The position numbers and the translations under genes were made by a program. A stretch of DNA of 64,000 bases, taken from positions 21,925-85,924 of the IMG/VR virus record IMGVR_UViG_3300037116_000081. One strand, 5' to 3'. The first letter of the stretch is position 1, and the number at the start of each line of letters is the position of its first letter. Under the pieces are notes generated by a model that was given only the letters and a program-made list of their open reading frames with translations, was not told the origin of the DNA and did no database searches. Source of the DNA: a virus. Below are positions 4,235 to 19,699 of the stretch, piece after piece.

Positions 4235-4345
4235 ATGAAGTTGAGAGGCTGGATACTCATGGCTCTCTGGAGTGGTTTCTACAGAAGCATCTTGCGTTTT
4301 GTGCCGCACTGGAATTGCGGCACGGAGAAAGGTCGATCCGAATGA
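4235..4345 (+). CDS. mini-ORF running through hairpin L1 (MKLRGWILMALWSGFYRSILRFVPHWNCGTEKGRSE)
   Basis: GAGGG SD; stop overlaps the ATG of the next gene (ATGA); translated by hand. Confidence 0.5.
   Translation: MKLRGWILMALWSGFYRSILRFVPHWNCGTEKGRSE
4295..4330 (+). repeat. cassette left-end hairpin L1 (GTGCCGCA-CTGGAAT-TGCGGCAC)
   Basis: 8-bp perfect stem, conserved loop, preceded by CGTTTT and followed by GGAG. Confidence 0.85.
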
Positions 4346-4596
4346 ACGATAATCCGCTAGGCCCATTGCAGGGCACATCGAGTCAGCAGTTCCACCTGAA
4401 CACGCTGGATTTCCAGAAAGTCGGCCGCATGGTGCTAGTGCAGATCATCGGGCTCGGCCTGACGCTCGGGGTTCCGTGGTTGCTGAAGCTTTCCTACGTG
4501 TGGAAGGGCCACGATTACACGCCAGATGTCCTGATCGTGGTGAACTGCGTAGCTGAACTGGGGAGACGTTTTCTGACCGGGGCACCGAAGACCTGA
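4342..4596 (+). CDS. small membrane protein, holin-like; paralog of 24669-24923
   Basis: 84 aa from MNDNPLG; hydrophobic segments; near-identical protein on the minus strand at 24.7 kb. Confidence 0.65.
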   Translation: MNDNPLGPLQGTSSQQFHLNTLDFQKVGRMVLVQIIGLGLTLGVPWLLKLSYVWKGHDYTPDVLIVVNCVAELGRRFLTGAPKT

Positions 4597-4773
4597 AAGG
4601 AACCCATGAAAGATATCATTCAACGAGTGCTGCTTGAACAGACGAACCTCTCGGACGCAAAGGCGGAGTATGTGGCACGGGAAATCGTGAACGCGTTGGG
4701 GCCTTACGCGCGGAACGATGATATCGGCAGCAGAACCGAGTACGCGGAGTCCGCAACTTAAAAGTAGAGGCGT

Positions 4774-5181
4774 GTGTTAACCTTGATGTTGAATCCGTTC
4801 GCTGATTACCACTTCATCTTTGATATCATCTCTGGCGTTGCGGTTGTCGCGGGCTCCTACTTCGGGCTCATGATAAAGAACGCGCTCGGGGCCATCCGGC
4901 TAGAGCAGGCCAACGCGAAGTCCGAACTACTCTTACAGCAATCGCACACGAAAGCAGAACTACTCGCCCATCAGAACGAAGTCAAAGAGGAAATGCTCGA
5001 ACAGCATGACGTGGTTGTCGAAGGGCAGCACGATTTAAGGGCCGAGTTTGTGGATAAACACGCTGAAAACAAACAATCTCTTGCGGTTCACCTCAATGAC
5101 GATGACCGCCGATTTGAAGCCTTGAACACAGTGCTGGCGCGGATCGATAAGACGGTCGAGAAGATAGCCAACGGGCACTGA
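4774..5181 (+). CDS. N-terminal TM plus coiled-coil protein (holin/XhlA-like lysis accessory)
   Basis: One TM helix followed by a heptad-rich region; same layout as 63299-63655. Confidence 0.55.
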   Translation: MLTLMLNPFADYHFIFDIISGVAVVAGSYFGLMIKNALGAIRLEQANAKSELLLQQSHTKAELLAHQNEVKEEMLEQHDVVVEGQHDLRAEFVDKHAENKQSLAVHLNDDDRRFEALNTVLARIDKTVEKIANGH

Positions 5182-5187
5182 CGACAG

Positions 5188-5225
5188 CCCAACCTTTGGG
5201 CGGGGATACTCCAGATCCCCGCCGA
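5188..5225 (+). repeat. cassette right-end hairpin R1 (GGCGGGGAT-ACTCCAG-ATCCCCGCC)
   Basis: 9-bp perfect stem; preceded by the CCCAA-cct-TTGGG mini-hairpin. Confidence 0.85.
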
Positions 5226-5303
5226 CACCTGACTGAGCACATTTGAACAGTATCAAAACCCCTGAACTGGGGTATACTCCAATCTGAAGAGGAGAAAACG
5301 AAA

Positions 5304-5597
5304 ATGTCTACCAAGCCTGTTCCAGCAACGGATAAAAACGAGAAAACCATCTCGGTGAACGTGGAAGGAAAATCGCGCCAAGTCGTCATTCAGCGGCACG
5401 AAACCACCACACACATTCTCGATCGGCTGAACCTGAAGGGCTATCAGCTCTCCATGGGGCCGAGCACGCCACAGAAAACTAACGTGCTCAACGCCGGCGA
5501 TATCGTTTTTGACAACGTAGTAGAAAACGAAGGGCTCGTCGCGACTGCGGTTCCGCCTGTCGGAAGACCTGCGCAACCTCAGCCCGTCAAAAAGTAG
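5304..5597 (+). CDS. possible ubiquitin-like (beta-grasp) protein
   Basis: Strong SD GAGGAG; beta-beta-alpha pattern ISVNVEG..RQVVI....TTHILDRLNL. Confidence 0.4.
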   Translation: MSTKPVPATDKNEKTISVNVEGKSRQVVIQRHETTTHILDRLNLKGYQLSMGPSTPQKTNVLNAGDIVFDNVVENEGLVATAVPPVGRPAQPQPVKK

Positions 5598-5602
5598 GGA
5601 CT

Positions 5603-5806
5603 ATGTTCCCTGCCTTTCTGATCCAGATTGTCATTTGCCTCATCATCGTGGGGCTCCTGCTGTACGTGGTCAACCTTCTGCCGATTGAGCCGAACATCAA
5701 GCAGATTATCCGGGTGGTGGTGATTGTGTTCGTTGTCATCTGGTTACTCTATGCTTTGATGGGTGCGGCTCCTATGGCTCCTATGAGTTTGCCCCTTAGA
5801 CGTTGA
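5603..5806 (+). CDS. two-TM small membrane protein (Thivi_2564-like)
   Basis: LIIVGLLLYVVNLLPIEPNIKQIIRVVVIV pattern. Confidence 0.65.
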   Translation: MFPAFLIQIVICLIIVGLLLYVVNLLPIEPNIKQIIRVVVIVFVVIWLLYALMGAAPMAPMSLPLRR

Positions 5807-5832
5807 ATCACAGCCGGCTTTAGGCGTATACT
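5803..5832 (+). promoter_or_regulatory. sigma70-type promoter TTGAAT-18-TATACT, leaderless start at 5839
   Basis: Direct motif reading; ATG lies 6 nt after the -10 box. Confidence 0.55.
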
Positions 5833-5850
5833 TCTGACATGAGCATCCTC

Positions 5851-5885
5851 CGTTTCGTGCGGCATTGGAGTAGCCGCACGGAGGG
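5851..5885 (+). repeat. left-end hairpin L2 (CGTGCGGC-ATTGGAGTA-GCCGCACG) inside mini-ORF 5839-5895 MSILRFVRHWSSRTEGCR
   Basis: 8-bp stem, loop variant TTGGAGT; GGAGG SD for the methyltransferase. Confidence 0.85.
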
Positions 5886-5891
5886 CTGTCG

Positions 5892-6308
5892 ATGACACCG
5901 ACCTTGCAGGCGCGATCTGTACACTTCAGCTCCTCATCAGACCGTTGGGCCACCCCGCGGGCCGTTTACGATGCGCTCGACGCGGAGTTTGCTTTTGATT
6001 TTGACCCATGCCCGTTAGATGGAAGCGCAGACGGCCTAGCCAGCCTGTTTACGGAGTGGCGTGGAAGGCGGGTATTCTGCAACCCTCCGTATGGCCCCGG
6101 CCTCGGAAAGTGGCTGGAACGTGGCCTAGAAGCCGAACTAGCAGTCTTCCTCGTCCCTGCCCGCACTGATACGCGCTGGTTCCATGACATCGTGCTACCA
6201 AAAGCGGTGGAGATACGATTCCTGAAGGGCCGCCTGACATTCGGAGATGCCGTCAACCCGGCCCCGTTTCCTAGTATGGTAGTGATATTCCAGAGGGCAG
6301 GTCGATGA
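5892..6308 (+). CDS. phage DNA N6-adenine methyltransferase (Dam-like)
   Basis: WATP, FDFDPC, VFCNPPY, PARTDTRWFH and RFLKGRL motifs. Confidence 0.9.
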   Translation: MTPTLQARSVHFSSSSDRWATPRAVYDALDAEFAFDFDPCPLDGSADGLASLFTEWRGRRVFCNPPYGPGLGKWLERGLEAELAVFLVPARTDTRWFHDIVLPKAVEIRFLKGRLTFGDAVNPAPFPSMVVIFQRAGR

Positions 6309-6460
6309 CCCGGCTGCTACTCGCGGTGTGGTGGTCTGCCGCTGGTTGGATTGCCATGTGCGCGGGTGTTAGCTGGATTCTTTTTAACGGTTGGTTGCGG
6401 AAGACAGTTCAAACTCTTGGGCGGGGCTACTCCAAGTGCCCCGCCGAAACCCCAAAGTAG
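6305..6460 (+). CDS. small membrane peptide ending across hairpin R2
   Basis: ATGA-coupled to the methyltransferase; MTRLLLAVWW...LGRGYSKCPAETPK. Confidence 0.5.
   Translation: MTRLLLAVWWSAAGWIAMCAGVSWILFNGWLRKTVQTLGRGYSKCPAETPK
6412..6447 (+). repeat. right-end hairpin R2 (GGCGGGGC-TACTCCAAGT-GCCCCGCC)
   Basis: 8-bp stem, loop contains ACTCCAA. Confidence 0.85.
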
Positions 6461-6618
6461 CGTATGACACTACAGGTCTGTGACGTATGCCGATTAGTAG
6501 ACGGAGACTTGTCAGTGAAGTTGTGCGACTGGTGCCAATCCTGTAAAGCGTGGATATGTCAGAAGGACTGGAATAACTGGCCCCGGCGCTCGCTCGCGGC
6601 TATTCGGAGAATGAGACA

Positions 6619-7239
6619 ATGAACCCCCTCGGCACACCAGCTTACTTACCAGGCATCGACGTTTCGCACTTCCAGGGAGTCATAGACTGGCAGCGCGTGA
6701 AAGCGGCGGGCATCGGATTCGCATTTATCAAGGCGACGGATGGGACAGGCTTTGTGGACCCGCAACTGAACTACAATGCTCTTGCTTGCCAAGCGCTGAG
6801 TATCCCGTTCGGGCTTTACCATTTCTTCCGGCCCACCGCGGACTCTGCGTCACAGGCTCAGTTTTTCCTGGCCAACACCAAGCCCTATACCCCGTTGCTT
6901 CCGCCTGCGCTTGATCTGGAACTCGGCCCGGTGACAACGAGTCAAGCGGCTACATGGCTCGACATCGTAGACGTGGCGCTTGGCCGCGAATCTCTGGTGT
7001 ACACTGCCCCGGCTTTCGCGGCCGAGAATTTTAACGGCGAAAACTCAGGACTGATCAGCGTCTATCCCCTCTGGATTGCAGAGTACACAACCAAACCTGC
7101 CCCAACTGTGCCGGCCGCGTGGGAAGATTGGGAATTCTGGCAGCACACCCCGAGTGGACAAGTTGACGGAGTACCGAATGCAGTAGACTTAGATTGGTTC
7201 CATGGAACAGCCGACGATTTAAGGGCATGGGTGAAATGA
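6619..7239 (+). CDS. GH25 lysozyme (muramidase) endolysin
   Basis: GIDVSHFQG, FAFIKATDG, LYHFF, LDLE, LWIAEY, FWQ and VDLD motifs. Confidence 0.93.
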   Translation: MNPLGTPAYLPGIDVSHFQGVIDWQRVKAAGIGFAFIKATDGTGFVDPQLNYNALACQALSIPFGLYHFFRPTADSASQAQFFLANTKPYTPLLPPALDLELGPVTTSQAATWLDIVDVALGRESLVYTAPAFAAENFNGENSGLISVYPLWIAEYTTKPAPTVPAAWEDWEFWQHTPSGQVDGVPNAVDLDWFHGTADDLRAWVK

Positions 7240-7253
7240 CCGCGAGCATTTTG

Positions 7254-7290
7254 CGTTTCGTTTTGCACTGGGGTAGCAGGACGCTGGGAG
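7254..7290 (+). repeat. left-end hairpin L3 (CGTTTTGC-ACTGGGGTA-GCAGGACG) inside mini-ORF 7236-7298 MTASILRFVLHWGSRTLGDR
   Basis: Stem with two G-T wobbles on the coding strand; GGGAG SD. Confidence 0.85.
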
Positions 7291-7298
7291 ATCGATGA

Positions 7299-7676
7299 AT
7301 GGCGACTAAGCGTAAACAAGTTCGACCCACGAAAGGGGAACCCGCTCAACCGTCTCCCGCTGGTTTTGAAGCATGGGCTATTATCGAAATCTTTGGCCAC
7401 CAGAAATACGCGGGCAAGGTTTCGGAGTTCGCAATCGGCGGGTGTAATTTCGTGCGCGTCGATGTTCCCGAGCTGCCCACGCGCCGTCCACAGGAACCGG
7501 CCATGCCCGCGTTTACCAAGCTCTTTGGAAACGGAGCCGTGTATTCGATCACGCTTGTATCTGAGGACGTGGCCCGCGCGGTCGCTGCGACGATCCGGCC
7601 AGAGCCGCTCAACGTTTACATCCCGATAATCCCTGACCGCCAGTTGCGCTCCGGAGACGAGGACGGATTTCAGTGA
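7299..7676 (+). CDS. conserved phage hypothetical protein (WAIIEIFGHQ..AG family); cassette cargo, duplicated at 11865-12251
   Basis: Highly similar paralog in inverted orientation. Confidence 0.8.
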   Translation: MATKRKQVRPTKGEPAQPSPAGFEAWAIIEIFGHQKYAGKVSEFAIGGCNFVRVDVPELPTRRPQEPAMPAFTKLFGNGAVYSITLVSEDVARAVAATIRPEPLNVYIPIIPDRQLRSGDEDGFQ

Positions 7677-7694
7677 TGTCGCCGACCGTTCGGA

Positions 7695-7740
7695 ATCTTG
7701 GGCAGGGCTACTTCAGTGCCCTGCCGACAGCCCCTGGAAC
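7695..7740 (+). repeat. right-end hairpin R3 (GGCAGGGC-TACTTCAGT-GCCCTGCC)
   Basis: 8-bp stem with a compensatory change relative to R2. Confidence 0.85.
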
Positions 7741-7752
7741 CTGAAAAGATTC

Positions 7753-8286
7753 GTGTACCTCTACTACCAACCCCGGCGAAGAAGAGGCTTCGGTGATCTC
7801 TCAACCGTTGCGGCCGCGATTCAGCAAATTGAAGGTTGGGCGCCCGGTACACGATCTTACCGCAATAACAATCCTGGGAACCTGATGTACGCGGGGCAAC
7901 CCGGCGCGACTGGCCAAGATCCTCAAGGCTTCGCAATCTTTCCGGATTATCAAACCGGGCTCACGGCGCTCGACAATCAAATCACACTCGACGCTTCGCG
8001 CGGCCAGACCATTTCGCAGTTCACGTCCATCTATGCCCCGGCGTCAGACGGAAATAACCCCACGTCGTATGCGGCGCAAATAGCTTCAGCGGCCGGCCTC
8101 TCACCTTCAGACTCACTTTCAGCAGCAATCGCGGGCTCCAGCTCGGCGCCCGACGTTTCAAGCGGTATGGATCTCTCATCGCTGTTTCCGTCGCTCAGCC
8201 TTCCGTCAATCGACTTCACGGACCCGACGACAATTGCCGTAACGGTGGGGATCGGCCTGGCGCTGGCGTGGGCACTGAATGCGTAA
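7753..8286 (+). CDS. virion-associated lysozyme-like/transglycosylase protein with C-terminal TM anchor
   Basis: IEG..PGTRSYRNNNPGNL, FAIFP and YAPASDGNNP motifs; C-terminal hydrophobic helix. Confidence 0.7.
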   Translation: MYLYYQPRRRRGFGDLSTVAAAIQQIEGWAPGTRSYRNNNPGNLMYAGQPGATGQDPQGFAIFPDYQTGLTALDNQITLDASRGQTISQFTSIYAPASDGNNPTSYAAQIASAAGLSPSDSLSAAIAGSSSAPDVSSGMDLSSLFPSLSLPSIDFTDPTTIAVTVGIGLALAWALNA

Positions 8287-8293
8287 CTCTTTT

Positions 8294-8327
8294 CGTTTTG
8301 TGCTGCCCTGGAGTAGCAGCACGGAGA
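8294..8327 (+). repeat. left-end hairpin L4 (GTGCTGC-CCTGGAGTA-GCAGCAC) inside mini-ORF 8279-8347 MRNSFRFVLPWSSSTENGRQRG
   Basis: 7-bp stem plus conserved loop. Confidence 0.85.
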
Positions 8328-8346
8328 ATGGTCGGCAAAGGGGGTG

Positions 8347-8454
8347 ATGCACTTTGCAATCTGCGCACTTTGCGGCGGCTACCATGCAATCGGATGCTGT
8401 CCAACCCCGCAGTTTTGCCCGCGCGTGGACGTGGTAGCGCTAGCGGGCCGGTAA
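8347..8454 (+). CDS. 35-aa Cys/His-rich peptide (MHFAICALCGGYHAIGCCP...), cassette cargo
   Basis: SD AAGGGGG; TGATG coupling; translated by hand. Confidence 0.5.
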   Translation: MHFAICALCGGYHAIGCCPTPQFCPRVDVVALAGR

Positions 8455-8463
8455 AACCACGAT

Positions 8464-8506
8464 CTCCCAACCTCTTGGGCGGGGCTATTCCAGTGCCCCG
8501 CCGATA
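8464..8506 (+). repeat. right-end hairpin R4 (GGCGGGGC-TATTCCAGT-GCCCCGCC)
   Basis: 8-bp stem; preceded by CTCCCAACCTCTTG. Confidence 0.85.
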
Positions 8507-8527
8507 GCCCCTATAGTACTTTCCAAC

Positions 8528-8556
8528 TTGAATTAAACTGGTGTGTGCAGTAGACT
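8528..8556 (+). promoter_or_regulatory. promoter TTGAAT-17-TAGACT, leaderless GTG at 8564
   Basis: Direct motif reading. Confidence 0.6.
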
Positions 8557-8563
8557 CTTTATC

Positions 8564-8743
8564 GTGCCCGAAGAACTTGACGACACCAACGAACTCTGCC
8601 CTGAATGCGGAGAGTCGATTAATGAGTGCGAGTGCGACGACGACGATATTTGCTGTGAAGAGTGCGGAGAGCTGCTGGCTGAATGCATCTGCGATCCAGA
8701 CGAAGACGGCGAAGGAGACGAGGACAACGATGAAATCAGCTAA
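8564..8743 (+). CDS. very acidic Cys-rich small protein (two CxxC..CxC repeats)
   Basis: CPECGESINECEC / CEECGELLAECIC; Asp/Glu-rich. Confidence 0.6.
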   Translation: MPEELDDTNELCPECGESINECECDDDDICCEECGELLAECICDPDEDGEGDEDNDEIS

Positions 8744-8940
8744 CCCTTACATCGAAGTGAACCTTCAGATCGACTACGATCTACTCGAATCACAGCGCTG
8801 CTTGTGTGGCGACCACAAAACGATGGGGCAGAAGATGTGTAACGGCTGCTACGCGAGACTCCGCACGGGCCAGCAAGCCCAACTCGCGGCAATGCAGCCG
8901 GGGGACGGCGTTGCGAATGCAGTAGCAGGATTGGTGCGGC

Positions 8941-9168
8941 GTGGCTGATATCGTTCACATTGCCGCGATTCCCCAGGAGAAAGAGCAACGCTGCCTCCGT
9001 TGTCTGCGAAAGCTGATCGACATCGACCCGGTAACGCAAGCCAGCTTTACGCCCACAGCCTTCGTGATGCAAACAGCGGGCGGGCATTGCGAAATCCAAG
9101 AGTCGGACGCAGGGCCGGGACAGATCGCATGCAGGGGTCGGGGTAGGCCACGGGAGAAAAGCATATGA
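8941..9168 (+). CDS. small hypothetical Zn-finger protein
   Basis: CLRC motif; coupled with neighbouring genes. Confidence 0.5.
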   Translation: MADIVHIAAIPQEKEQRCLRCLRKLIDIDPVTQASFTPTAFVMQTAGGHCEIQESDAGPGQIACRGRGRPREKSI

Positions 9169-13737: not shown

Positions 13738-13738
13738 G

Positions 13739-14136: not shown

Positions 14137-14164
14137 ATCATACTGCAATTCAGATAAGAAGCAA
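14137..14164 (-). promoter_or_regulatory. promoter TTGCTT-16-TATGAT for the four-gene lipoprotein module
   Basis: Positional equivalent of the promoter at 24328-24358. Confidence 0.5.
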
Positions 14165-14185
14165 GTACCGGAGCGTACCAGGACC

Positions 14186-14356: not shown

Positions 14357-14436
14357 GATTGACCTCCCAACGTGCTGCTACTCCAGATTGACCTCCCAAC
14401 GTGCTGCTACTCCTACTCCAGTGCAGCACGAGACGA
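14357..14436 (-). repeat. left-end hairpin L7 with a partial tandem duplication and duplicated loop bases
   Basis: GATTGACCTCCCAACGTGCTGCTACTCC occurs twice, then TACTCCAGTGCAGCACGAGACG. Confidence 0.85.
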
Positions 14437-14444
14437 ATATAACC

Positions 14445-15278
14445 TCACAGAAATCTTTGATTGACCCAGCTCTGTACTCCATCCAGAAACTCAATTGGCC
14501 CAAAAGGCGTCTCCTGCGTTTTCCCGCATTCGTAATCCCAAACAGGCTCCCAGAGCTGAACCGATAACAGATCCCGCAAGTCCCGCTCAATCTCCGCGCT
14601 GTGCGTTGCGATGTGCAAGCGCTTCACTTTCGCGTTGAGGTCATCCAGCCCTGCGCGGATCACGAGGTATTCCTGGCCCTGTATGTCCACGTCGATCACA
14701 TCGACTAACTGGTGAGGGCGCAGAAGATCGGCCAACGTGACGGTTTCAGTTGTTAGCCCTTCTTCATTGAGCGTAGCTATCCGTTGTCCGTACCACTCAG
14801 CCGGCCGGCCAGTCAGAAAGAGACATTCGCCCGGTGTGTCCGATACTGCGGCTTCGACTAATGTCGGAATGATGCAAGGCGCTATGCCGAGTCCGTTATC
14901 TCGGCAATGTTGCAACATCCATTGGTAATGCGTGGGCTCCGCCTCCACCGCTACCAATCGGGTTCGCTCTAGCCCAGCCGCAAACGCCGCCCGCACAGAC
15001 CAGCGGCCATATCCGGCGCCCAGCTCCATGAACGTATAAATTTCGTTCGCGGCCTGCACGGATTCCAGTAGATCAATCCACTCAAAGTACTCTTCGTTGA
15101 ACGCAGGAAGCCCAGCTACTCCTACGGCGCCCGGCCCTTCCCTCGTTGTCTGCGCGGTGAATTCCGCCCGCGAAACAGTTCCGAGGAAGCTGTCACTTAG
15201 AAAAACAGGATTGCCCCACATGCGTAGAGGAGCCGGCTTCCGCACGAAATGAGAGAAGACTGGGTGATGTTCAGGCAT
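14445..15278 (-). CDS. FkbM-family SAM methyltransferase
   Basis: FMELGAGYG, VAVEAEP and VDIQGQE motifs. Confidence 0.85.
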   Translation of the reverse strand: MPEHHPVFSHFVRKPAPLRMWGNPVFLSDSFLGTVSRAEFTAQTTREGPGAVGVAGLPAFNEEYFEWIDLLESVQAANEIYTFMELGAGYGRWSVRAAFAAGLERTRLVAVEAEPTHYQWMLQHCRDNGLGIAPCIIPTLVEAAVSDTPGECLFLTGRPAEWYGQRIATLNEEGLTTETVTLADLLRPHQLVDVIDVDIQGQEYLVIRAGLDDLNAKVKRLHIATHSAEIERDLRDLLSVQLWEPVWDYECGKTQETPFGPIEFLDGVQSWVNQRFL

Positions 15279-15281
15279 TGC

Positions 15282-15605
15282 TCAAATCGATTCCCAAAAC
15301 GATTCCCTTGTCTTGAATGGAGGAGACTCAACATTTTCCGTCCCGCGCTGAACTGGGGTTTCAGCGCGTTGAGCACTCATCCACTTACTGAGGGCCTTCG
15401 ATGCGCAGGGTTCGGAGCAGATGTGTTTTTCTACTGTGTCGTCACCCGCGTTTACAACCGTCGTATCCCATGGGATTAATATAAAGACATCGGCGATCAA
15501 CAAGCTCGGCGTTCGCTGTTGCGCGTACGGCCTTAACCTCCACCAGTGATTCGATTCCTGCTTTTGCTTCCCGCACCCATCGCACGAGTAGACTTCGGAT
15601 TTCAT
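15282..15605 (-). CDS. Zn-finger hypothetical protein; C-terminal part encoded by hairpin C2
   Basis: CDGC...HICSEPC; RAETPVQRGTE. Confidence 0.7.
   Translation of the reverse strand: MKSEVYSCDGCGKQKQESNHWWRLRPYAQQRTPSLLIADVFILIPWDTTVVNAGDDTVEKHICSEPCASKALSKWMSAQRAETPVQRGTENVESPPFKTRESFWESI
15339..15372 (-). repeat. right-end hairpin C2
   Basis: CGCGCTGAA-CTGGGGT-TTCAGCGCG. Confidence 0.9.
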
Positions 15606-15895
15606 TCCGCCATCCGTCCTTTACAGAACTCGCGATGCGCTCCCCGCTGGCCCTGAAGCAACATCACTTCCACGCAATTACAGCACAGCCCCGCGTGTTC
15701 ATCATTCGCGCCTGCGCTCAGTAGCGCGCCGCACTTCCGGCAATTGTGTGGTTCAAACAGCGGACGGAGACGCGTTCCCAGGTCCCTACAGAATCGCGCG
15801 AACTGAAACGGATCAGAAACAGCCAATCCCAAACCAAGCAACGCGAGCAGAGGGAAGAACAACACCAGGCCGACGTAATTGAATGCGCGTCTCAT
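15602..15895 (-). CDS. TM plus Zn-finger hypothetical protein
   Basis: N-terminal TM, CRKC..CCNC; ATGA coupling. Confidence 0.6.
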   Translation of the reverse strand: MRRAFNYVGLVLFFPLLALLGLGLAVSDPFQFARFCRDLGTRLRPLFEPHNCRKCGALLSAGANDEHAGLCCNCVEVMLLQGQRGAHREFCKGRMAE

Positions 15896-16077
15896 ATTGG
15901 CCTCGCTATTACATCGTGGCTATAATGGTCCCACCAGAAATCATGAAAGCGACTCGCGTTCAACTCGCCGGCATCGGCTTTTAGCTGATCGAAGTCGGGC
16001 TCGAGCAACTCCTGTTCTGACGTGGCAACAAGCGAAGGGAACGCGAGCGAGCACGATTTACAGAACAGTTCGAACAT
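15892..16077 (-). CDS. small hypothetical protein
   Basis: Coupled ORF with CKSC..H motif. Confidence 0.5.
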   Translation of the reverse strand: MFELFCKSCSLAFPSLVATSEQELLEPDFDQLKADAGELNASRFHDFWWDHYSHDVIARPI

Positions 16078-16719
16078 TTACGCGGCCCTTCGGCTCTTCC
16101 CCACGCCTGCGTTCACGTGAGCCAGCGCGGTTTTGAAAAGCTCATCGAAAGATTGCCCGTCTTTGCCGGCCGCGAGTACGGCCTCCTGCGCTTCAGCAAA
16201 AGGAACTTTCAGATTGCAGAGAGCAGAGAGCACATCTTGATGAACTGAAGAAAGCATTTCGCGGTATTGTACTACACTTCCACGTTTTGCGTTTCGCGCT
16301 GCACTGGAGTTGCAGCGCGTTGGGAGTTCTTTCCCGAAAACTTTGGCAGGACCTCCCACAGTTGCCCGGTTAGGCGACGTACCCGACCATTTCTGGCTGT
16401 GACTTACCCGTCCCTGTTGTGCCTGGACGCCGATGGATTCAGATTTCTCTGAACGGACGGACTCGCTCATCTCAAGGTCCTGGGTCTTGCGACCGCGCTT
16501 ATATGCGCCACTACTCCAGTGTGGCGCAAGACGAAAACTATCGAGATTCAAAAAGAGCCGGGCAACCTTACTGCAACCGATTGCCCGGACAAGAAGTACA
16601 TGCGAAATTACAGATACTCCAAAGCCTATCAGAAACATCCACCCAGGTAAAGAGCGAGTCGCAACCACGCAGAGGGAAACCAGGGCGACACCAGCGAGGA
16701 AGCTGTAGGCGTGTTTCAT
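16078..16719 (-). CDS. membrane protein with C-terminal RuvA domain III-like module
   Basis: Two N-terminal TMs; DVLSALCNL...EAQEAV......FDELFKTAL. Confidence 0.6.
   Translation of the reverse strand: MKHAYSFLAGVALVSLCVVATRSLPGWMFLIGFGVSVISHVLLVRAIGCSKVARLFLNLDSFRLAPHWSSGAYKRGRKTQDLEMSESVRSEKSESIGVQAQQGRVSHSQKWSGTSPNRATVGGPAKVFGKELPTRCNSSAARNAKRGSVVQYREMLSSVHQDVLSALCNLKVPFAEAQEAVLAAGKDGQSFDELFKTALAHVNAGVGKSRRAA
16290..16326 (+). repeat. hairpin-family member inside a CDS (CGTTT-CGCGCTGCA-CTGGAGT-TGCAGCGCG-TTGGGAG)
   Basis: 9-bp perfect stem with full L-type flanks, inverted relative to local transcription. Confidence 0.85.
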
Positions 16720-17021
16720 TTTAACACCTCAGCATTTTCCGTCTCGCGCTGAATTGGAGTCGGATCGTCAGGCAGAAGTTCCAGTTCGTTTAGCTCGAAT
16801 GGTATCGCCCCGCCGAGCATCATCTTGGGACCGAAGACCTCAAAGATATTCCAGAGCTGAGTTTCGATCAAGCCATCCCGCCAGCCGGAATAGACTGCGT
16901 CACAATATTTTTCCCCATCCTGGATGTGGCCGAACACCACACGCGAATAGAAATTAACGAGGATGTTTTGCCCGTGTCTGTTGAGCTTCACCCGGACTCG
17001 TCGGTTAAGGTTGATCTTCAT
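16716..17021 (-). CDS. conserved phage hypothetical protein; ends across half-hairpin C3 (16740-16760)
   Basis: INLNRRVRVKL..G...QLW..F.VFG; ends TPIQRETE. Confidence 0.7.
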   Translation of the reverse strand: MKINLNRRVRVKLNRHGQNILVNFYSRVVFGHIQDGEKYCDAVYSGWRDGLIETQLWNIFEVFGPKMMLGGAIPFELNELELLPDDPTPIQRETENAEVLK

Positions 17022-17095
17022 GATTTATTTTGTCCCGAAACCAGCCACAAAACAAGTAACCAAAGTACCATTCTTGTCGTAGTACGAAATCCCTA

Positions 17096-17125
17096 TGTGC
17101 TGCATTCCAGGGCAGCACAAGACGC
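17096..17125 (-). repeat. left-end hairpin L8 (minus: TGTGCTGC-CCTGGAAT-GCAGCACA)
   Basis: 8-bp stem, conserved loop. Confidence 0.85.
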
Positions 17126-17136
17126 AACCTGCCCAG

Positions 17137-17292
17137 TCAGCAATCGCCGAAATTAACAGTCCAGAGCGCTACAATCTTCTGCCAAAACGATCCATGGCCG
17201 GTCATCTGTATTTCACAGGTCCCGTACTTATAAGTAGTCGCCAGCAATGGCAGACCGCAGATCAGCACACCACATGCGAGAATGCGTTTCAT
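17137..17292 (-). CDS. 51-aa secreted peptide (MKRILACGVLICGLPLLA-TTYKYGTC...GDC); paralog at ~30046-30201
   Basis: AAGGAGG SD; signal peptide; translated by hand. Confidence 0.65.
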   Translation of the reverse strand: MKRILACGVLICGLPLLATTYKYGTCEIQMTGHGSFWQKIVALWTVNFGDC

Positions 17293-17317
17293 TTGCCTCC
17301 TTTCTCCCCATTTTCTT

Positions 17318-17351
17318 CGTCTCGCGCTGAACTGGGATTTTAGCGCGTTGA
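17318..17351 (-). repeat. right-end hairpin C4 (CGCGCTGAA-CTGGGAT-TTTAGCGCG)
   Basis: Variant of C1. Confidence 0.85.
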
Positions 17352-17355
17352 GCTT

Positions 17356-17637
17356 TCAGTCCGTGTGGCATCGAAAATACCAGCCACCGTTTTGAGACTT
17401 GGTCCTCGGGATATCCGGGTCTTTTCCGAAGCGCGGTTTTGCGCAACGCGCCTGTTCAAGCCAATCTCCCCGATCCGTCGCCGCAATAATCACCACCGGC
17501 TGAGATAATGGCATTTCCGCAAACACGATCAAACAAGCGCCTACCTGCGGAATGATAGACCGCTCATGGAAGCCTACGACAAGGTACCCGCGTTCCTGAA
17601 TCAGGAAGCTTGCAACTTCATCACCTTTGGTCATGAT
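17356..17637 (-). CDS. hypothetical cassette cargo protein
   Basis: Fills the space between L9 and C4; SD derives from the hairpin flank. Confidence 0.6.
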   Translation of the reverse strand: MMTKGDEVASFLIQERGYLVVGFHERSIIPQVGACLIVFAEMPLSQPVVIIAATDRGDWLEQARCAKPRFGKDPDIPRTKSQNGGWYFRCHTD

Positions 17638-17639
17638 GC

Positions 17640-18047
17640 TCAACCTCCCAACGTCCTGCTACTCCAGTGCAGGACGAAACGAATACCATTCCTCATAAGA
17701 ATAGCGGCTATAATCACCACTCCGAACCACAACATGGACGGCTCCGGAGTAATCGTTGGCGGTGGCACGTACGGCGGCGGCACAATTGTCTGTCCTGGAG
17801 GAATCACAGGAGGCCCCGGAGGGATGACCACGGCCACATACGCAGGCGGCTCCCACGTCTCCGCTTTCGGCGCGCACCATTGGATTGCAGGGTTCAGGAC
17901 CGAATTCTCACAGATAATTTTATCCGTCCCATAACCCGGAAAGTAGACTACCGTTGTCCAGGCGTCCTGTTGCAAGGTGATCACGAGATCGCCGTAGGTA
18001 AACGGTGTCGTACCGTTCCCCATTGGCTGCTGAAGATTGACACTCAT
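17640..18047 (-). CDS. PEP-CTERM-like protein, Pro-rich; C-terminus fused to hairpin L9; paralog of 29598-29957
   Basis: TPEPS followed by a TM helix; ends IRFVLHWSSRTLGG. Confidence 0.7.
   Translation of the reverse strand: MSVNLQQPMGNGTTPFTYGDLVITLQQDAWTTVVYFPGYGTDKIICENSVLNPAIQWCAPKAETWEPPAYVAVVIPPGPPVIPPGQTIVPPPYVPPPTITPEPSMLWFGVVIIAAILMRNGIRFVLHWSSRTLGG
17643..17684 (-). repeat. left-end hairpin L9 (plus: CCTCCCAA-CGTCCTGC-TACTCCAGT-GCAGGACG-AAACG)
   Basis: 8-bp stem. Confidence 0.9.
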
Positions 18048-18523
18048 TAGCATTCCTCCGTCTCGCGCTGAACTGGGGTTTCAGCGCGGGGAACCTCCGA
18101 CCAATCCCAGAGACTTAGCGCGCCTTTTGCAGGAATCGGAGTTTCGAACGCGCGCACATTTTTAAGTATCCAACCAAACCGATTCGGAGAATAGTCTCCG
18201 AATGCACGCTCTCTTTCCGTGTCCAGTTCAGGGTAATCGTCAAACACTCCCGAGAGGCAGCCGCGCGCCTCTGTCGGAAGAATGTCAATGAGTTCGCATG
18301 TTGCGATAATCTTCCCAATAGGAAGTTGTAACGCGGACACCACGGAAAGGGAAGAACGGAATGGCTCAATTAGAACGTAATCGCGGCAATCGGGCGGGAA
18401 GCCCTTCGCGGCGTGTATCGCAAGCGGCCCACGGTACGCGGTGCTCCAGGAGCGTGTCTCGATTCTCTTCGCCCCGAGTGCTACAAGCGTAGCCCATGGC
18501 TGAGTGAGAGTCAGGGCTTTCAT
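18047..18523 (-). CDS. ASCH-domain protein (cassette cargo)
   Basis: MKALTLTQPWATLV..GAKRIETRSW.T.YRGPLAIHA...KGALSLW; ends RAETPVQRETEEC. Confidence 0.9.
   Translation of the reverse strand: MKALTLTQPWATLVALGAKRIETRSWSTAYRGPLAIHAAKGFPPDCRDYVLIEPFRSSLSVVSALQLPIGKIIATCELIDILPTEARGCLSGVFDDYPELDTERERAFGDYSPNRFGWILKNVRAFETPIPAKGALSLWDWSEVPRAETPVQRETEEC
18059..18088 (-). repeat. right-end hairpin C5
   Basis: CGCGCTGAA-CTGGGGT-TTCAGCGCG. Confidence 0.9.
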
Positions 18524-18529
18524 GCGAGA

Positions 18530-18570
18530 CCTCCCAACGTGCTGCTACTCCAGTGCAGCACGAAACGAAT
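18530..18570 (-). repeat. left-end hairpin L10 inside mini-ORF 18520-18582 MRSSIRFVLHWSSSTLGGLA
   Basis: CGTGCTGC-TACTCCAGT-GCAGCACG-AAACG. Confidence 0.9.
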
Positions 18571-18571
18571 A

Positions 18572-18697
18572 CTACTCCTCATTCTTTGGCCATTTCGCAC
18601 GGTCAGTCTTAGGGTACTTTGCGTTCGACGTAAACACTTCGTACGCAGCCATCCCGAGCAGGCATACGATGAGGAGAAAGCATCCAAGTGCAATCAT
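18572..18697 (-). CDS. 41-aa membrane peptide; paralog of 30244-30444 lacking the Zn finger
   Basis: MIALGCFLLIVCL.GMAAYEV shared with the paralog. Confidence 0.6.
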   Translation of the reverse strand: MIALGCFLLIVCLLGMAAYEVFTSNAKYPKTDRAKWPKNEE

Positions 18698-19134
18698 GCG
18701 GCCCTCCGTTGAATCAACTGATCTCTAAGGTATTCCCCGCAGACACGGAAAGCTCTGAGAATCGCATTCTTGGCCCCATAGGCAACCGGATCTAGCAAGA
18801 ATTCTTGCCCTCTGTAAAGCGCATGCCAGTAACGCAAGCCTGCTTCTTCCTCACGTGGGACGATTACCAGCCGCGGCTTCTCTCTCAACTCCCGTAAAAT
18901 CTCCTGCACATCCAATTCGTAAGTCTGAATGAATCGCGGCCATCCGATCCGGTGTTGCTCTTCGTGATGCGCGGAGCACAGCGGCAACGTGTCCAGGTCA
19001 GAGCGCTTCTGTCCCATCCCGCGTGATCCCGGAGCGTGCGCCGCTTGGACTCCCCGCGTGCGGCCGCAACCTGGCACAGCGCAAGGAAGCGTGCGGATGA
19101 AGGCGAGATGTTCGGGAGAGCGTGTGGGAGTCAT
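18694..19134 (-). CDS. DUF968/HNH-like nuclease-fold protein
   Basis: RSPEHLAFIRTLPC..C....QAAH....GMGQK.SD..TLPLC..HH.EQH. Confidence 0.8.
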   Translation of the reverse strand: MTPTRSPEHLAFIRTLPCAVPGCGRTRGVQAAHAPGSRGMGQKRSDLDTLPLCSAHHEEQHRIGWPRFIQTYELDVQEILRELREKPRLVIVPREEEAGLRYWHALYRGQEFLLDPVAYGAKNAILRAFRVCGEYLRDQLIQRRAA

Positions 19135-19138
19135 GTGT

Positions 19139-19444
19139 CTACAAGAACCTCTGCGCTACCCAACCGACTCCCAGGATCATCAGCAGTCCACAAATTTCAT
19201 AGATTTCCCTAAAGTGAAAGGGATATTCTCTTTCGGGTTTGGGCTTCTTGAAATTACGCCGCCTGAACATCGCGACAAGGCAGGACACGCCAATACTTCT
19301 TGCTACACCCAACGGTCTGACGTCGGTATAGGAAACGATAAACCACAGCCAAAAAAAGCTGGTTACGTATCCGGCCAAAACAATACTGATAGGCACCAGC
19401 AATATCCCGACGCAGCCCCAAGCCGAATCTTTTGTTTCGCCCAT
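19139..19444 (-). CDS. multi-TM membrane protein
   Basis: Three hydrophobic segments. Confidence 0.55.
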   Translation of the reverse strand: MGETKDSAWGCVGILLVPISIVLAGYVTSFFWLWFIVSYTDVRPLGVARSIGVSCLVAMFRRRNFKKPKPEREYPFHFREIYEICGLLMILGVGWVAQRFL

Positions 19445-19498
19445 GCGTTAATCTTGCCTCAGCGCGCGCACGCCGTCAAGATCCGGAAGTACTAGGAC

Positions 19499-19699
19499 TC
19501 ACACGCCAGCATCATCTTCCGTTTCGCGCTGAACTGGGGTTTCAGCGCGTTGAAAGTTCGCAACAAAGAATTGGCGCGAATAAAATCCCACGTCGCCTGA
19601 GTCGAACTTCACCGCGACGTAATTGCATCCCAGATTCACCTTGGTGATTTCACCAACGCTCCGTCTCGTAACTTTGTCACCCACTTTGAAATCTTCCAT
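19499..19699 (-). CDS. small SH3/KOW-like protein ending across hairpin C6
   Basis: FKVGDKV...GEITKV....VAVKFD; RAETPVQRETE. Confidence 0.65.
   Translation of the reverse strand: MEDFKVGDKVTRRSVGEITKVNLGCNYVAVKFDSGDVGFYSRQFFVANFQRAETPVQRETEDDAGV
19520..19553 (-). repeat. right-end hairpin C6
   Basis: CGTTT-CGCGCTGAA-CTGGGGT-TTCAGCGCG-TTGA. Confidence 0.9.

Follow-up and report, generated by a model that had tools for sequence, protein, structure and literature searches.

What are the conserved-loop hairpins that bracket small genes in the left part of this window (the whole 64,000-nucleotide stretch of viral DNA analysed), and are genes exchanged at them? A sequence-only reading had counted some 23 dispersed hairpins between positions 4295 and 19553 and took them for the ends of mobilisable or shufflable cassettes. 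A script that looked for TGGRRT loops on stems of 6 bp or more returned 34 hairpins in the whole 85,924-bp genome (G000). Twenty-nine of them, sharing common flanks, served as seeds of a covariance model (R1), and five without such flanks (genome positions 20725, 42146, 47356, 78259 and 85282) were left out. R1 produced 36 matches at E ≤ 10 in 86.5 kb; the 32 matches at E ≤ 2e-4 were the 29 seeds, window 14387-14442, window 7688-7737 and L001 3035-3089. What emerges is one element of about 50 nt (45-50 nt), with 32 clear copies and one degenerate copy, consisting of a tag (CGTYTYG), a co-varying stem of 8-9 bp, a loop (CTGGRRT) and a tail (GTTGGGAG/GGAG). All copies lie within genome positions 329-41,486, up to window position 19,562, and the R1 search found none past that point, in the tailed-phage half. 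The span first described holds 23 clear copies and the degenerate one; nine others are located upstream of the window (genome 329-18,536). The window contains the string CTGGRRT 61 times, where 25.9 ± 4.75 would be expected, and none of 100 shuffles came up to 61. It is confirmed that the hairpins are real, stand where they had been placed and occur far beyond chance.

In the 29-row alignment, 93.0% of 257 stem cells are paired (71.8 ± 1.6 in shuffles, none of 500 being equal; 25.7-47.9% in slid controls), and eight of nine stem pairs have changed on both sides. In 135 copies taken from eight virus records, Watson-Crick pairs make up 1075 of 1195 stem cells. Stem covariation together with conservation of loop and tag speaks for a single strand that folds, be it RNA or ssDNA, and not for a duplex operator, as had been argued before. 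The loop itself is less strictly fixed than was claimed: TTGGAGT, ATGGAGT and CTGAAGT are found in this genome, and CTGGATT and CTGAGGT in other viruses. In G004, three copies carry an insert of about 50 nt in the loop, bordered at both ends by CTGG/ATGG. Several copies inside a single genome are identical. Stems vary while loop and tag stay conserved even among viruses with almost no genes in common, which suggests that a sequence-specific reader may exist, one that the explanation favoured below leaves unnamed.

In this genome the copies alternate in orientation, so that small genes of low conservation come to lie inside convergent pairs. Of 31 steps from one copy to the next, 26 change orientation (P = 1e-4); counting the degenerate copy gives 28 of 32, a value that none of 200,000 permutations reached. 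The median gap is 402 nt for convergent and 890 nt for divergent intervals. Alternation was significant in G000 and G001 only, and not in G002, G003, G004 or G006. Homologues in G001, G002 or G005 exist for 3 of 15 genes in short convergent intervals versus 31 of 42 in divergent ones (P = 4.8e-4); when all intervals are taken, the convergent count is 11 of 23 versus the same 31 of 42 (P = 0.057). Inverted doublets with a spacing of 18-27 nt are also present.

The sequence-only reading distinguished upstream L sites from downstream R or C sites. The latter prove to be the same element in opposite orientation, and the distinction survives in that they have stem subtypes of their own; copies are referred to here as 5'-type (sense) or 3'-type (antisense, subtypes B and C), with R1 scores in bits. 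The first cassette, three genes at 4342-5181, opens with a 5'-type hairpin (4288-4337, +; 58.5 bits) that has a Shine-Dalgarno sequence (SD) after the stem and the ATG of gene 4342-4596 17 nt after it; the predicted RNA fold (-19.2 kcal/mol) puts the SD in the lower stem. A subtype B hairpin with a GGCGGGG stem, antisense to the + genes (5186-5235, -; 39.9 bits, fold z -2.79), closes this cassette. A Dam-family DNA N6-adenine methyltransferase gene (5892-6308, +; Pfam PF05869, E 3.8e-13), whose homologue is absent from G001, G002 and G005, stands between a 5'-type hairpin (5844-5893, +; 57.8 bits) with the ATG 11 nt past its stem and a subtype B hairpin (6407-6457, -; 45.5 bits) that is kept in the related L080. 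The gene at 7299-7676 (+), encoding 125 aa with no Pfam family, is enclosed by a 5'-type hairpin whose sense strand has two U-G wobbles (7247-7296, +; 55.6 bits) and a subtype B one (GGCAGGGC; 7688-7737, -; 26.7 bits, E 8e-6). This cassette is duplicated together with both hairpins, at about 80% nucleotide identity, as an inverted copy made up of a subtype B hairpin (11804-11853, +; 41.6 bits), a paralogous gene of 128 aa (11865-12251, -) and its 5'-type hairpin (12255-12303, -; 49.8 bits, fold z -4.25) with the ATG 16 nt past the stem. Both cassettes are entirely missing from L080.

Two further pairs differ from L080 in what they enclose. Between the 5'-type hairpin at 8287-8336 (+; 55.5 bits), directly past whose 3' arm the divergence starts, and the subtype B hairpin at 8465-8514 (-; 44.8 bits; a hybrid in L080), 145 nt are replaced by 569 nt. 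Between a subtype C hairpin with a GCGCTGAA stem and a CTGGGGT loop, through which the upstream ORF reads (14185-14234, +; 54.0 bits), and a 5'-type hairpin whose loop contains a 6-nt duplication and which adjoins a partial tandem copy (14387-14442, -; 49.3 bits; its L080 orthologue is a hybrid), 188 nt become 833 nt. Two sites formerly listed as unpaired have partners that had been overlooked. The one at 11412 (11398-11446, -; 53.8 bits; 948 extra nt adjoin it in L080) is convergent with 10842-10891 (+; 49.8 bits), located within an ORF (10606-11265, -) conserved in G001, G002 and G005. The one at 16295 (16283-16332, +; 64.4 bits) is the left half of a pair with 16491-16540 (-; 49.0 bits), whose content of 171 nt is exchanged for 153 nt in L080. 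The subtype C hairpin at 15332-15381 (+; 55.3 bits) does lack a convergent partner.

The degenerate copy, a half-site (16733-16785, +; 12.5 bits, E 0.3), and a hairpin sense to - genes (17083-17131, -; 52.8 bits) precede a cassette at 17311-17688 that is wholly absent from L080. It extends from a variant of subtype C, with a stop codon inside and a single G-T pair when read on the + strand (17311-17360, +; 52.7 bits) to the 5'-type hairpin (17639-17688, -; 56.5 bits; a weak contig joint in run X7) of gene 17356-17634 (-). The gene for an ASCH-domain protein (18047-18523, -; Pfam PF04266, E 3.6e-5) has a 5'-type hairpin (18525-18574, -; 61.6 bits) with the ATG 14 nt past the stem; its last codons overlap a subtype C hairpin (18052-18101, +; 52.9 bits), and its stop overlaps the next ATG. 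In L080, 216 unrelated nt take the place of this gene between conserved hairpins. A DUF968 / His-Me finger (HNH-like) nuclease gene, a candidate partner only, is located at 18694-19134 (-; Pfam PF06147, 30.6 bits with a cut-off of 27.8; HNHc_6). A 110-bp repeat ends with the last copy, of subtype C (19513-19562, +; 62.5 bits); homology in this repeat stops at the hairpin's 3' arm, where the contig's two halves meet.

The sense type is fused to a ribosome-binding site (RBS), with the SD 0-4 nt and the ATG 11-17 nt past the stem; eight sense copies in G000 have an ATG at this distance and open ORFs of 53-158 aa. For all four sense copies folded, the predicted structure pairs the SD, partly with the tag side. 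Subtypes B and C are located at gene ends and are frequently read through by upstream ORFs; comparison of the seed copy list plus the weak copy at L001 3035 with gene maps showed antisense orientation in 7/7 B and 6/6 C copies. In five of six C copies the upstream ORF reads through in one frame, with the tail RAETPVQRETE or one change off, and the reverse-complemented tag of both subtypes, CGARACGGAG, is an SD-like sequence for the next gene. The elements have no U-tail and are therefore not classical intrinsic terminators. Since no sigma-70-like promoter was found in the element (6 sites versus 7.9 expected in the region), the parallel with PeSLs is incomplete. Subtypes that follow the direction of transcription and carry an RBS fit regulatory RNA structures that ordinary recombination would use as conserved linkers for exchange. 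Tag, loop and tail are nevertheless kept in the roughly half of all copies that run antisense to genes, which a purely RNA-level function leaves unexplained.

If the hairpins are cassette ends, breakpoints between related genomes are expected at them, and this is what comparison with three relatives revealed (P about 1e-7). Against L080, 12 of 20 breakpoints are at most 15 nt from a hairpin (12.6% expected, P = 8e-7), and against G001 17 of 60 (6.4% expected, P = 1e-7). In 37 of 41 near-hairpin breaks, tag and hairpin remain with the conserved sequence, mostly with the break 0-15 nt past the 3' arm. The differences from L080 include four content swaps between conserved hairpins and three whole-cassette indels, and 2 of 15 L080 orthologues are hybrids joining the 5' arm of one type to the 3' arm and tail of another. 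Where a 53-aa gene sits in G000, the pair in G001 is empty, its members 17 nt apart, and where G000 has a single hairpin, G001 has a filled pair; a solitary copy of about 55 nt at genome position 12786 in G000 is missing from the matching intergenic spot of G001. Orthologous sites keep copies with near-identical cores in flanking DNA that is 77-91% identical. Differing as related genomes do at the hairpins, these look like natural plug-in points for gene swapping, although the shared stretch of 20-45 nt is short for ordinary homologous recombination. The idea of mobilisable cassette ends thus holds for breakpoints, swaps and indels, but no dedicated integrase or HUH enzyme was found, as the sequence-only reading had noted for the window: tyrosine recombinase PF00589 is absent from G000, G001, G002 and G006, and Y1 HUH PF01797 from all five genomes searched. 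Less in line with cassette ends, one hairpin lies within a conserved ORF and, in a separate virus group (G003, G004 and G006), they flank conserved structural-module genes, which fits a general expression signal.

The family matched nothing in Rfam, either at the gathering score or at E ≤ 1. Thirteen IMG/VR virus records carry it, a peat-soil virus group, as do several metagenome contigs. In the 7.3-Mb Bryobacteraceae MAG that holds provirus G006, 9/9 matches (150 of 3851 candidates scored) fall inside the provirus stretch, which argues against a host REP family, and 185,579 species genomes gave only nine hits, each a singleton. These numbers weigh against selfish REP/MITE-like miniature elements with an enzyme encoded elsewhere and no function for the virus, the genes between copies being passengers. 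We consider that account improbable, even though the solitary copy, the identical copies and the REP-dimer-like inverted doublets agree with it and the tagged-REP architecture of bacteria (PMC3733652), in which heterodimers and DNA inserted between partners occur, offers a precedent. Y1 transposase is absent from the viruses searched, copies are kept at orthologous sites, and subtypes that supply an RBS imply that the elements are in use. The GGA of the loop, read together with the GGAG of the SD, could instead be the site of an RNA-binding translational regulator (host CsrA-type or a virus protein) that switches accessory genes together, exchange being incidental. In sense copies GGA does appear both in the apical loop and, 15-25 nt further on, in the SD, which is partly masked in predicted folds, and the MAG holding G006 encodes a CsrA homologue (61.8 bits). 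We nonetheless see little chance of this, since RNA from the antisense half shows CUCC/CCCC instead of GGA, loops such as CTGGGGT and CTGAGGT miss the GGA core, the tag is left unaccounted for, and CsrA was found neither in G013 nor in the virus records searched. Of the CsrA consensus, only the GGA core seems to match.

A dedicated, structure-specific exchange system is more likely than either, if still rather doubtful. A nuclease or recombinase would read the folded element (ssDNA hairpin or cruciform) via tag and loop. Its cut, placed within the loop or at the 3' arm's base, would drive exchange or insertion of tail-side DNA. REP-RAYT suggests, by analogy, the DUF968 His-Me finger nuclease as the candidate; alternatively, a host enzyme such as XerCD could act. 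Conservation of tag, loop and tail in either direction of transcription, with stems that merely keep pairing, is consistent with such a system, as are the fixed polarity of breaks, hybrid hairpins whose crossovers fall in some 20 nt around the loop, the loop inserts of G004 and the joint of the contig's halves at a 3' arm. DUF968, with homologues in G001, G002, G003, G005 and G006, is one of only two protein families common to all six larger hairpin-bearing genomes. Hairpins lie beside its gene in the few-copy genomes G006 (19 nt) and G010 (145 nt), about 20 nt before its ATG in G017 despite only two copies in 44 kb, and 21 nt and about 75 nt from it in G001; in nine of the ten nearest hairpins the tag faces the gene, like REPs flanking RAYT genes. 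The co-occurrence is, however, non-specific: a hairpin is missing from 72 of the 74 other DUF968-like loci (1.06 Mb), G007 and G009 have hairpins and no DUF968 homologue (none was seen in G004, 48% complete), and the nearest hairpin is 856 nt away in G002 and 464 nt in G003. General polarity alone predicts a tag facing any conserved gene, and a pure DNA site needs neither a built-in RBS nor transcription-linked subtypes.

The explanation we favour, giving it about an even chance, is that these are virus-borne REP/PeSL-like "tagged" stem-loops whose primary job is in the transcript and whose conservation also makes them linkers for accessory-gene exchange. As intercistronic or UTR structures they would set translation through SD masking and coupling, and may act in RNA-end protection or termination. 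Recombination between the short conserved islands, with crossovers at the loop or 3' arm, would replace, remove or duplicate cassettes when viruses co-infect a cell or when a virus meets a provirus, and the distinct 5' and 3' subtypes would hold an insert in its expressed orientation. The earlier statement that known analogues do not match was too strong. Most of this logic is common to T4-type PeSLs, for which cassette exchange by recombination at short conserved islands has likewise been proposed, and to tagged REP dimers; like REPs, the present element is a tagged stem-loop, but one carried by viruses.

The hairpins of the window share one architecture: a tag (CGTYTYG), a stem of 8-9 bp, a loop, the second arm and a tail (GTTGGGAG or GGAG). 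The tag, CGTY plus three nucleotides ahead of the stem, is unpaired; the stem is GC-rich and varies with compensation, with C-G or U-G at its base, and the loop of 7-9 nt is built around CTGGRRT, a motif found 61 times in the window against 25.9 expected. The whole 85,924-bp record (the genome, G000) was searched by script for hairpins with a CTGGRRT-type loop, and out of the 34 retrieved, the 29 with common flanks, all within genome 341-41,473, were kept and the five without such flanks left out. In the 29-row alignment, 93.0% of the cells of the 9-bp helix are paired, compared with 71.8% after shuffling (0 of 500 shuffles equalled the observed value); both sides vary in eight of the nine stem pairs, and slid controls are 26-48% paired. 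The covariance model of the element, R1, retrieved 32 clear copies and one degenerate copy from the genome, with none past window 19,562; 23 of the clear copies and the degenerate one fall in the span for which the sequence-only reading had counted about 23 hairpins. No known Rfam family matched, either at gathering score in the window or at E <= 1 in window 4000-20000. In all, 135 copies from eight virus records were aligned, and dozens more are present in related contigs. G-T cells away from the basal and apical pairs number four, in three copies, and A-C cells zero, which is too few to assign the strand.

Copies in the sense orientation are 5'-type hairpins, and those antisense to genes are 3'-type, with two subtypes: B has the stem GGCGGGGC or GGCAGGGC, and C the stem GCGCTGAA with the loop CTGGGGT. 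The downstream sites that had been named R and C are present and do have stem subtypes of their own, but they are the same element on the opposite strand. Likewise, the hairpins at window 11412 and 16295, which had been called unpaired, are real, but both are paired, with partners at 10842-10891 and 16491-16540 that had been overlooked. Some copies are irregular. At window 14360-14442, a 5'-type element has its tail and 3' arm partly duplicated in tandem, and its loop has a 6-nt duplication (GGAGTA). Other loops hold a structured insert of 50-64 nt (12315-12415, 19278-19378 and 21853-21953 in the virus record G004; 6327-6440 in the record G003), and the three in G004 have CTGG at their left border and either CTGG or ATGG at their right one, resembling a short target duplication.

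The contig looks like two viruses joined, one in genome 1-41,486 (window 1-19,562) and the other in window 19,563-64,000. Three records of 38.6-45 kb with terminal repeats (G001, G002 and G005) are collinear with the hairpin-rich half, as is a 43.4-kb contig running from window ~19,023 directly into genome 256; the other half has matches to tape measure, capsid, portal and terminase genes and no hairpin. Repeats of 110 bp, 95% identical, are located at genome 257-366 and 41,365-41,474 (window 19,441-19,550); their similarity ends at a C-type hairpin, at its 3' arm. The joined contig could be either a real cointegrate or an assembly chimera. Genes found in both halves at 72-80% identity are located at genome 34,439-35,643 and 44,626-45,849, at 870-1,910 and 42,152-43,186, and at 26,267-26,524 and 46,846-46,589; in the last pair, homology begins at the ATG after a 5'-type hairpin. 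At window 30229-30320, in the hairpin-free half, a tag and 5' arm are followed ~55 nt on by a matching 3' arm, in what looks like a collapsed or interrupted hairpin. It adjoins paralogues (91-93% identical) of two small genes from the hairpin-rich half, where the flanks that match it are separated by 1.25 kb (window 17,329-18,578). Positions 5925-25986 of L001 (a stretch of the same record covering copies upstream of the window) and window 1-4062 form a long operon of large ORFs almost without Pfam or PHROG matches; one of the ten tested matched, as a glycosyltransferase.

The search was extended with R1 beyond the window, and the element was found both upstream of it and in further IMG/VR records. 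A degenerate pattern scan of IMG/VR gave 17 stretches on 11 contigs; R1 copies number 27, 20, 24, 17, 3, 11, 1, 1, 2, 2 and 6 in the records G001 to G011, respectively, two in G017 and one in G018, so that the element is present in 14 IMG/VR records, counting the window's own. Five metagenome contigs, four of about 44 kb and one of 6.2 kb, are dense with copies. The same pattern applied to 185,579 prokaryote species, one genome each, returned only nine singleton stretches, and in a 7.3-Mb Bryobacteraceae MAG (G012), all nine matches (among 150 scored of 3851 first-look candidates) fall in the provirus G006, at 218-297 kb of a single contig. On these counts the family is viral, as opposed to a REP family of the host. 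The hosts include at least one acidobacterium, and the public runs containing the window's sequence are peat and permafrost metagenomes. The element spans virus groups with very few genes in common, in uncultured viruses of peat and permafrost Acidobacteriota.

The subtypes are tied to the direction of the genes. Eight sense copies of G000 have a Shine-Dalgarno (SD) sequence directly past the stem and an ATG 11-17 nt past it, opening ORFs of 53-158 aa, and in four of them the SD is predicted to base-pair with the tag side in the folded RNA. When the copy list was set against the gene maps, subtypes B (7/7) and C (6/6) were found to be antisense to the local genes, at gene ends. C-type hairpins are traversed by the upstream ORF in a single frame in five of six cases (window 14185-14234, 15332-15381, 18052-18101 and 19513-19562; L001 329-378), the stop codon following 11-62 nt beyond, and unrelated proteins thereby gain the C-terminal RAETPVQRETE or a tail one change from it. 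The stop codon of the ASCH gene overlaps the next ATG, and the SD-like GGAG or GGAA for the following gene comes from the reverse-complemented tag. Over all 129 copies of standard length the pattern is mixed: a start codon comes after 34 on the sense side alone and after 40 on the antisense side alone, whereas 18 have one on each side and 37 have none. Elements are also found between large genes of a common syntenic module in G003, G004 and G006. One hairpin (window 10842-10891) lies in coding frame inside an ORF of 219 aa (window 10606-11265, minus strand) that is conserved in G001, G002 and G005; it is kept at the same position in G001 and in L080, part of the 43.4-kb contig.

Several known signals were sought in the element. 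A consensus scan found no sigma-70-like promoter inside any element (six promoter-like sites in window 4000-20000 against 7.9 +/- 3.1 after shuffling; the host promoter type may differ), and a sigma-70 promoter within it was accordingly rejected; one promoter-like site, at window 5803-5832, is just upstream of an element. By eye, a sigma-54 promoter was rejected on account of too short a GG-to-GC spacing, and a pseudoknot of the antisense loop with the next SD appeared inconsistent with the variants of the loop. There is no T-run or U-tail in the elements, and none of 23 terminator-like sites belongs to the family, which gives no support to classical intrinsic terminators. As to possible kissing loops between the two hairpins of a cassette, the 5' and 3' loop classes are generally complementary; two of 12 convergent pairs (tails facing) in G000 have identical loop 7-mers (27768/28331, with the rare TTGGAGT, and 38207/38415), and kissing with a C-type partner would leave a central A-C mismatch. 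Eight listed pieces of the window are matched by contigs of the one RNA run. One of them (window 4145-4327) stops with the hairpin at 4297-4327, at its 3' end, but it is a single contig of low depth and no evidence of transcription or of an RNA end.

Along G000, orientation switches in 26 of 31 steps between neighbouring hairpins (P = 1e-4), or in 28 of 32 with the degenerate copy, a number reached by 0 of 200,000 permutations; in G001 it switches in 19 of 26 (P = 0.011), and no significant alternation was detected in G002, G003, G004 or G006. Median convergent and divergent gaps are 402 and 890 nt in G000, 169 and 790 nt in G001 and 27 and 2019 nt in G004. A homologue in G001, G002 or G005 exists for 11 of 23 genes in convergent intervals and for 31 of 42 genes in divergent ones (P = 0.057). 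G001 lacks the right-hand hairpin of the 3.9-kb interval 8824-12786; when this interval is set aside, an exclusion chosen post hoc, the numbers become 3 of 15 and 31 of 42 (P = 4.8e-4). The named cassette genes encode a Dam methyltransferase and an ASCH protein; a GH25 endolysin and an FkbM-type methyltransferase are in divergent, backbone intervals. G000 has two copies of one cassette, a 125-aa gene with a hairpin on either side, which are inverted and ~80% identical, the homology extending from the tag to ~20 nt past the second hairpin. Convergent doublets 18-27 nt apart ("empty" pairs) are found at 1534-1658, 9433-9557 and 12239-12415 of G004 and at 9378-9494 of G001; RNAfold joins the partners of the G001 doublet and of G004 9433-9557 in one long imperfect helix, and the G004 spacers have a short ATAACCG / CGGTTAT-like motif in common.

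The sequence-only reading had taken the hairpins for cassette ends, and the breakpoints between relatives do coincide with them. G001 is 44 kb long, has a terminal repeat of 97 bp and aligns collinearly to genome 0.3-41.4 kb, with 65-87% identity; a search of IMG/VR for closer relatives of the endolysin yielded this record alone. Among alignments of 90 nt or longer, 17 of the 60 listed ends on the G000 side fall <=15 nt from a hairpin, compared with 6.4% expected (P = 1.3e-7), as do 12 of 60 on the G001 side (P = 2e-5). Where G000 has a hairpin, a 53-aa gene and a hairpin (18273-18536), G001 has two hairpins 17 nt apart; conversely, a single hairpin of G000 (2343) corresponds in G001 to a hairpin, a 73-aa gene and a hairpin, with identical unusual stems, and the solitary hairpin at genome 12786 marks a clean indel between conserved genes. 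L080, whose methyltransferase is 97% identical, gave 12 of 20 ends of collinear blocks <=15 nt from a hairpin, compared with 12.6% expected (P = 8e-7). Four content swaps lie between conserved convergent hairpins (145 nt in G000 vs 569 in L080, 188 vs 833, 171 vs 153, and 432, with ASCH, vs 216), and in three events a whole cassette was lost with both hairpins. Hairpin cores are near-identical between the two, and the surrounding aligned blocks are 77-91% identical. Over six pairwise comparisons, 41 of 176 alignment ends are <=25 nt from a hairpin core; the tag and hairpin are on the conserved side in 37 of these 41 breaks, most of which fall 0-15 nt past the 3' arm. Two of 15 orthologous hairpins in L080 are hybrids, in which the resident 5' arm is followed by a 3' arm and tail derived from another copy, so that a G-T pair remains. 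The crossover is thereby located to ~20 nt around the loop.

Four public runs were also compared, as assembled contigs at 88% identity, where uncovered stretches carry no meaning. Weak contig joints, with short sides, drop or replace cassette DNA from 5884 to 6372, from 16719 to 17062 (in two runs, with 40 other letters between) and from 17309 to 17710 (27 letters between). Loose contig ends at hairpins were not counted, since many are other family copies mapping across.

The absence of a cognate recombinase or HUH enzyme, claimed for the window from sequence alone, held in Pfam and six-frame searches of G000. The 23 Pfam families found among 150 predicted proteins include no recombinase or transposase; in six-frame searches of five virus records, a tyrosine recombinase (PF00589) is present only in G003, being absent from G000, G001, G002 and G006, and a Y1 (HUH) transposase (PF01797) in none. 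An all-against-all ORF comparison left two protein families common to all six larger hairpin-bearing genomes. The first consists of a 177-aa protein (window 7753-8286) that matches no Pfam family. The second, encoded by an ORF missing from the initial gene calls, is a 146-aa DUF968 protein (window 18694-19134, minus strand) that scores 30.6 bits where the cut-off is 27.8, matches HNHc_6 more weakly and retains the Cys/His motif of His-Me finger nucleases. In the literature, DUF968 is grouped with prophage YdfU/YbcO, beside RusA-type genes, and fusions to recombination proteins are described (PMC5714182, PMC4118853). In low-copy genomes a hairpin adjoins the DUF968 gene, 19 nt away in G006 and 145 nt in G010; G017, with only two copies in 44 kb, has one ~20 nt ahead of its ATG, and in G001 hairpins are 21 nt and ~75 nt from the gene. 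The nearest hairpin is 856 nt away in G002 and 464 nt in G003; G007 and G009 have hairpins without the gene, and 72 of 74 other DUF968-like loci have no hairpin. As a general rule, DUF968 therefore does not mark the hairpins specifically.

An expression signal acting in RNA is suggested by four features: subtypes that follow the direction of transcription, the built-in ribosome-binding site, ORFs running through 3' copies, and copies located between conserved structural genes. That relatives exchange genes at these elements is shown by the statistics and polarity of the breakpoints, by the swaps and duplicated cassettes, and by the hybrid hairpins. The simplest account joining the two, to which we give an even chance, is that of PeSL-like portable homology: the stem-loops would regulate expression in the transcript, and their conservation would supply the homology for exchange. 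It leaves unexplained the conservation of tag, loop and tail in antisense copies and among viruses nearly without common genes. A structure-specific enzyme would give both this conservation and the fixed position of the breaks, and a dedicated exchange system with the DUF968 nuclease as candidate enzyme is a tentative possibility, to which the gene's place beside a hairpin in G006, G010 and G017 lends some colour; against this link stand the many DUF968-like loci without a hairpin, the hairpins of G007 and G009 without the gene, and the distant ones of G002 and G003.

In its most specific form, which we regard as unlikely, there would be a virus-borne, hairpin-guided cassette exchange in which the His-Me finger nuclease reads tag and loop and cuts at the loop or the base of the 3' arm, the subtypes fix orientation, and genes are moved between unrelated Acidobacteriota viruses. 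Such reading would follow the logic of REP-RAYT with a different enzyme class, and distinct 5' and 3' subtypes would, as in engineered recombinase-mediated cassette exchange, force the expressed orientation of an incoming gene. Selfish, REP-like spread of the hairpins has a tagged-REP build in its favour and is very doubtful for a family that, among the candidates scored in the MAG, is absent from the host outside the provirus; CsrA-type regulation via the hairpins, which would make use of the element in RNA, is equally improbable. Portable homology of regulatory stem-loops is the account we prefer.

Phage genomes are mosaics, and exchange has long been argued to occur at conserved "linker" sequences between modules. 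To our knowledge, clear natural linkers are few, the PeSLs of T4-type phages being the best documented, and Acidobacteriota have almost no phage genetics. The hairpin family is a clean new example, with a simple co-varying fold, fixed polarity, and filled, empty, swapped and hybrid sites all seen among related genomes. It makes testable whether short structured regulatory signals render accessory genes portable and whether a small nuclease assists exchange, and its 5' element, a hairpin with a ribosome-binding site, may serve as a natural expression "socket". The element would be a repeated intergenic stem-loop of the kind mediating modular shuffling, in a family that appears to be new: it is not described in the literature searched on PeSLs, start-associated sequences, phage stem-loop cassettes, DUF968, pdif and Acidobacteria prophages.

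Integron attC sites are folded single-strand sites, conserved in structure over sequence, that bound promoterless swappable genes. The present element likewise folds into structurally conserved sites that bound accessory genes, but G000, G001, G002 and G006 have no IntI, each cassette has two inverted, alternating hairpins rather than a single attC in fixed orientation, the core is 25-31 nt with a conserved loop, and no R''/L''/L'/R' box layout was seen in it by eye. IS200/IS605 elements have subterminal hairpins on the same strand at either end and come with TnpA (Y1), whereas here the ends are inverted and PF01797 is absent from the five records searched. In dif modules of Acinetobacter plasmids, short sites in inverse orientation bound accessory modules in alternation, according to the parts of the reports available (PMC6449649, PMC13141974). 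As described there, such modules share with G000 the alternating inverted sites and the lack of an adjacent recombinase gene. A pdif site is a 28-bp duplex bound by XerC/XerD, whose two 11-bp arms are conserved and whose centre measures 6 bp; here, the arms vary with compensation and the centre is 7-9 nt. The element thus lacks what defines integron attC, IS200/IS605 ends and dif sites.

Excerpts on the SAS/ESAS of Cluster K mycobacteriophages describe a motif tied to translation starts, with an inverted repeat upstream of the SD part (Pope et al. 2011, PMC3203893), and the hairpins resemble it in both respects. In ESAS, however, the arms are conserved and the spacer varies, whereas here the arms vary and the loop is conserved; SAS/ESAS have a single orientation and are not described in those excerpts as exchange points. 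Tagged REPs of the GTAG and CGTC super-families, in the accessible portion of the source, are mostly located after coding regions, are transcribed and form inverted dimers, often heterodimers, which may hold inserted DNA; some copies are intragenic, and CGTC REPs have no known transposase (Di Nocera et al. 2013, PMC3733652). With them, so far as that portion goes, the element shares an end tag that is unpaired (CGTC or CGTT in this family), a stem of 8-9 bp with its loop and short tail, a high copy number, inverted dimers (the doublets of G001 and G004) whose partners may differ in their stems or have DNA between them, and copies within genes. REPs, by the same portion, are bacterial chromosomal families, and CGTC families 1-4 have A/T pairs at stem positions 1-2, a loop of 4-5 nt and a CCA tail (PMC3733652), none of which is found here. 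The hairpins differ also in their conserved 7-9-nt loop, their tail GTTGGGAG or GGAG, the lack of a RAYT, and dimer partners that enclose whole genes and carry a ribosome-binding site.

The PeSLs of T4-type phages are, in the parts of the papers available, repeated intergenic motifs with a strong sigma-70 promoter, a stem-loop and then an SD and start codon; they have a single orientation, are associated with deletions and mini-circles, and recombination between the repeats has been proposed (Arbiol et al. 2010, PMC2839356; Comeau et al. 2014, PMC4122927). Their sequences are unrelated to the present ones. As far as those parts describe them, PeSLs also differ in their promoter and variable stem-loop position, in place of which the element has a conserved loop and a 7-nt tag, and in being one-way, whereas two specialised subtypes are inverted here at the two ends of a gene; of the terminator or attenuator feature, the stem-loop is present and the U-tail absent. 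Within the same limits, the likeness lies in a short repeated stem-loop motif ending in the SD and start of the next gene, as in the eight sense copies of G000, in clustering around small ORFan genes of plastic regions, and in indels and replacements at the motifs. Taken together, the comparisons suggest an element that probably works like PeSLs, is built like tagged REP dimers and resembles dif modules in its layout.
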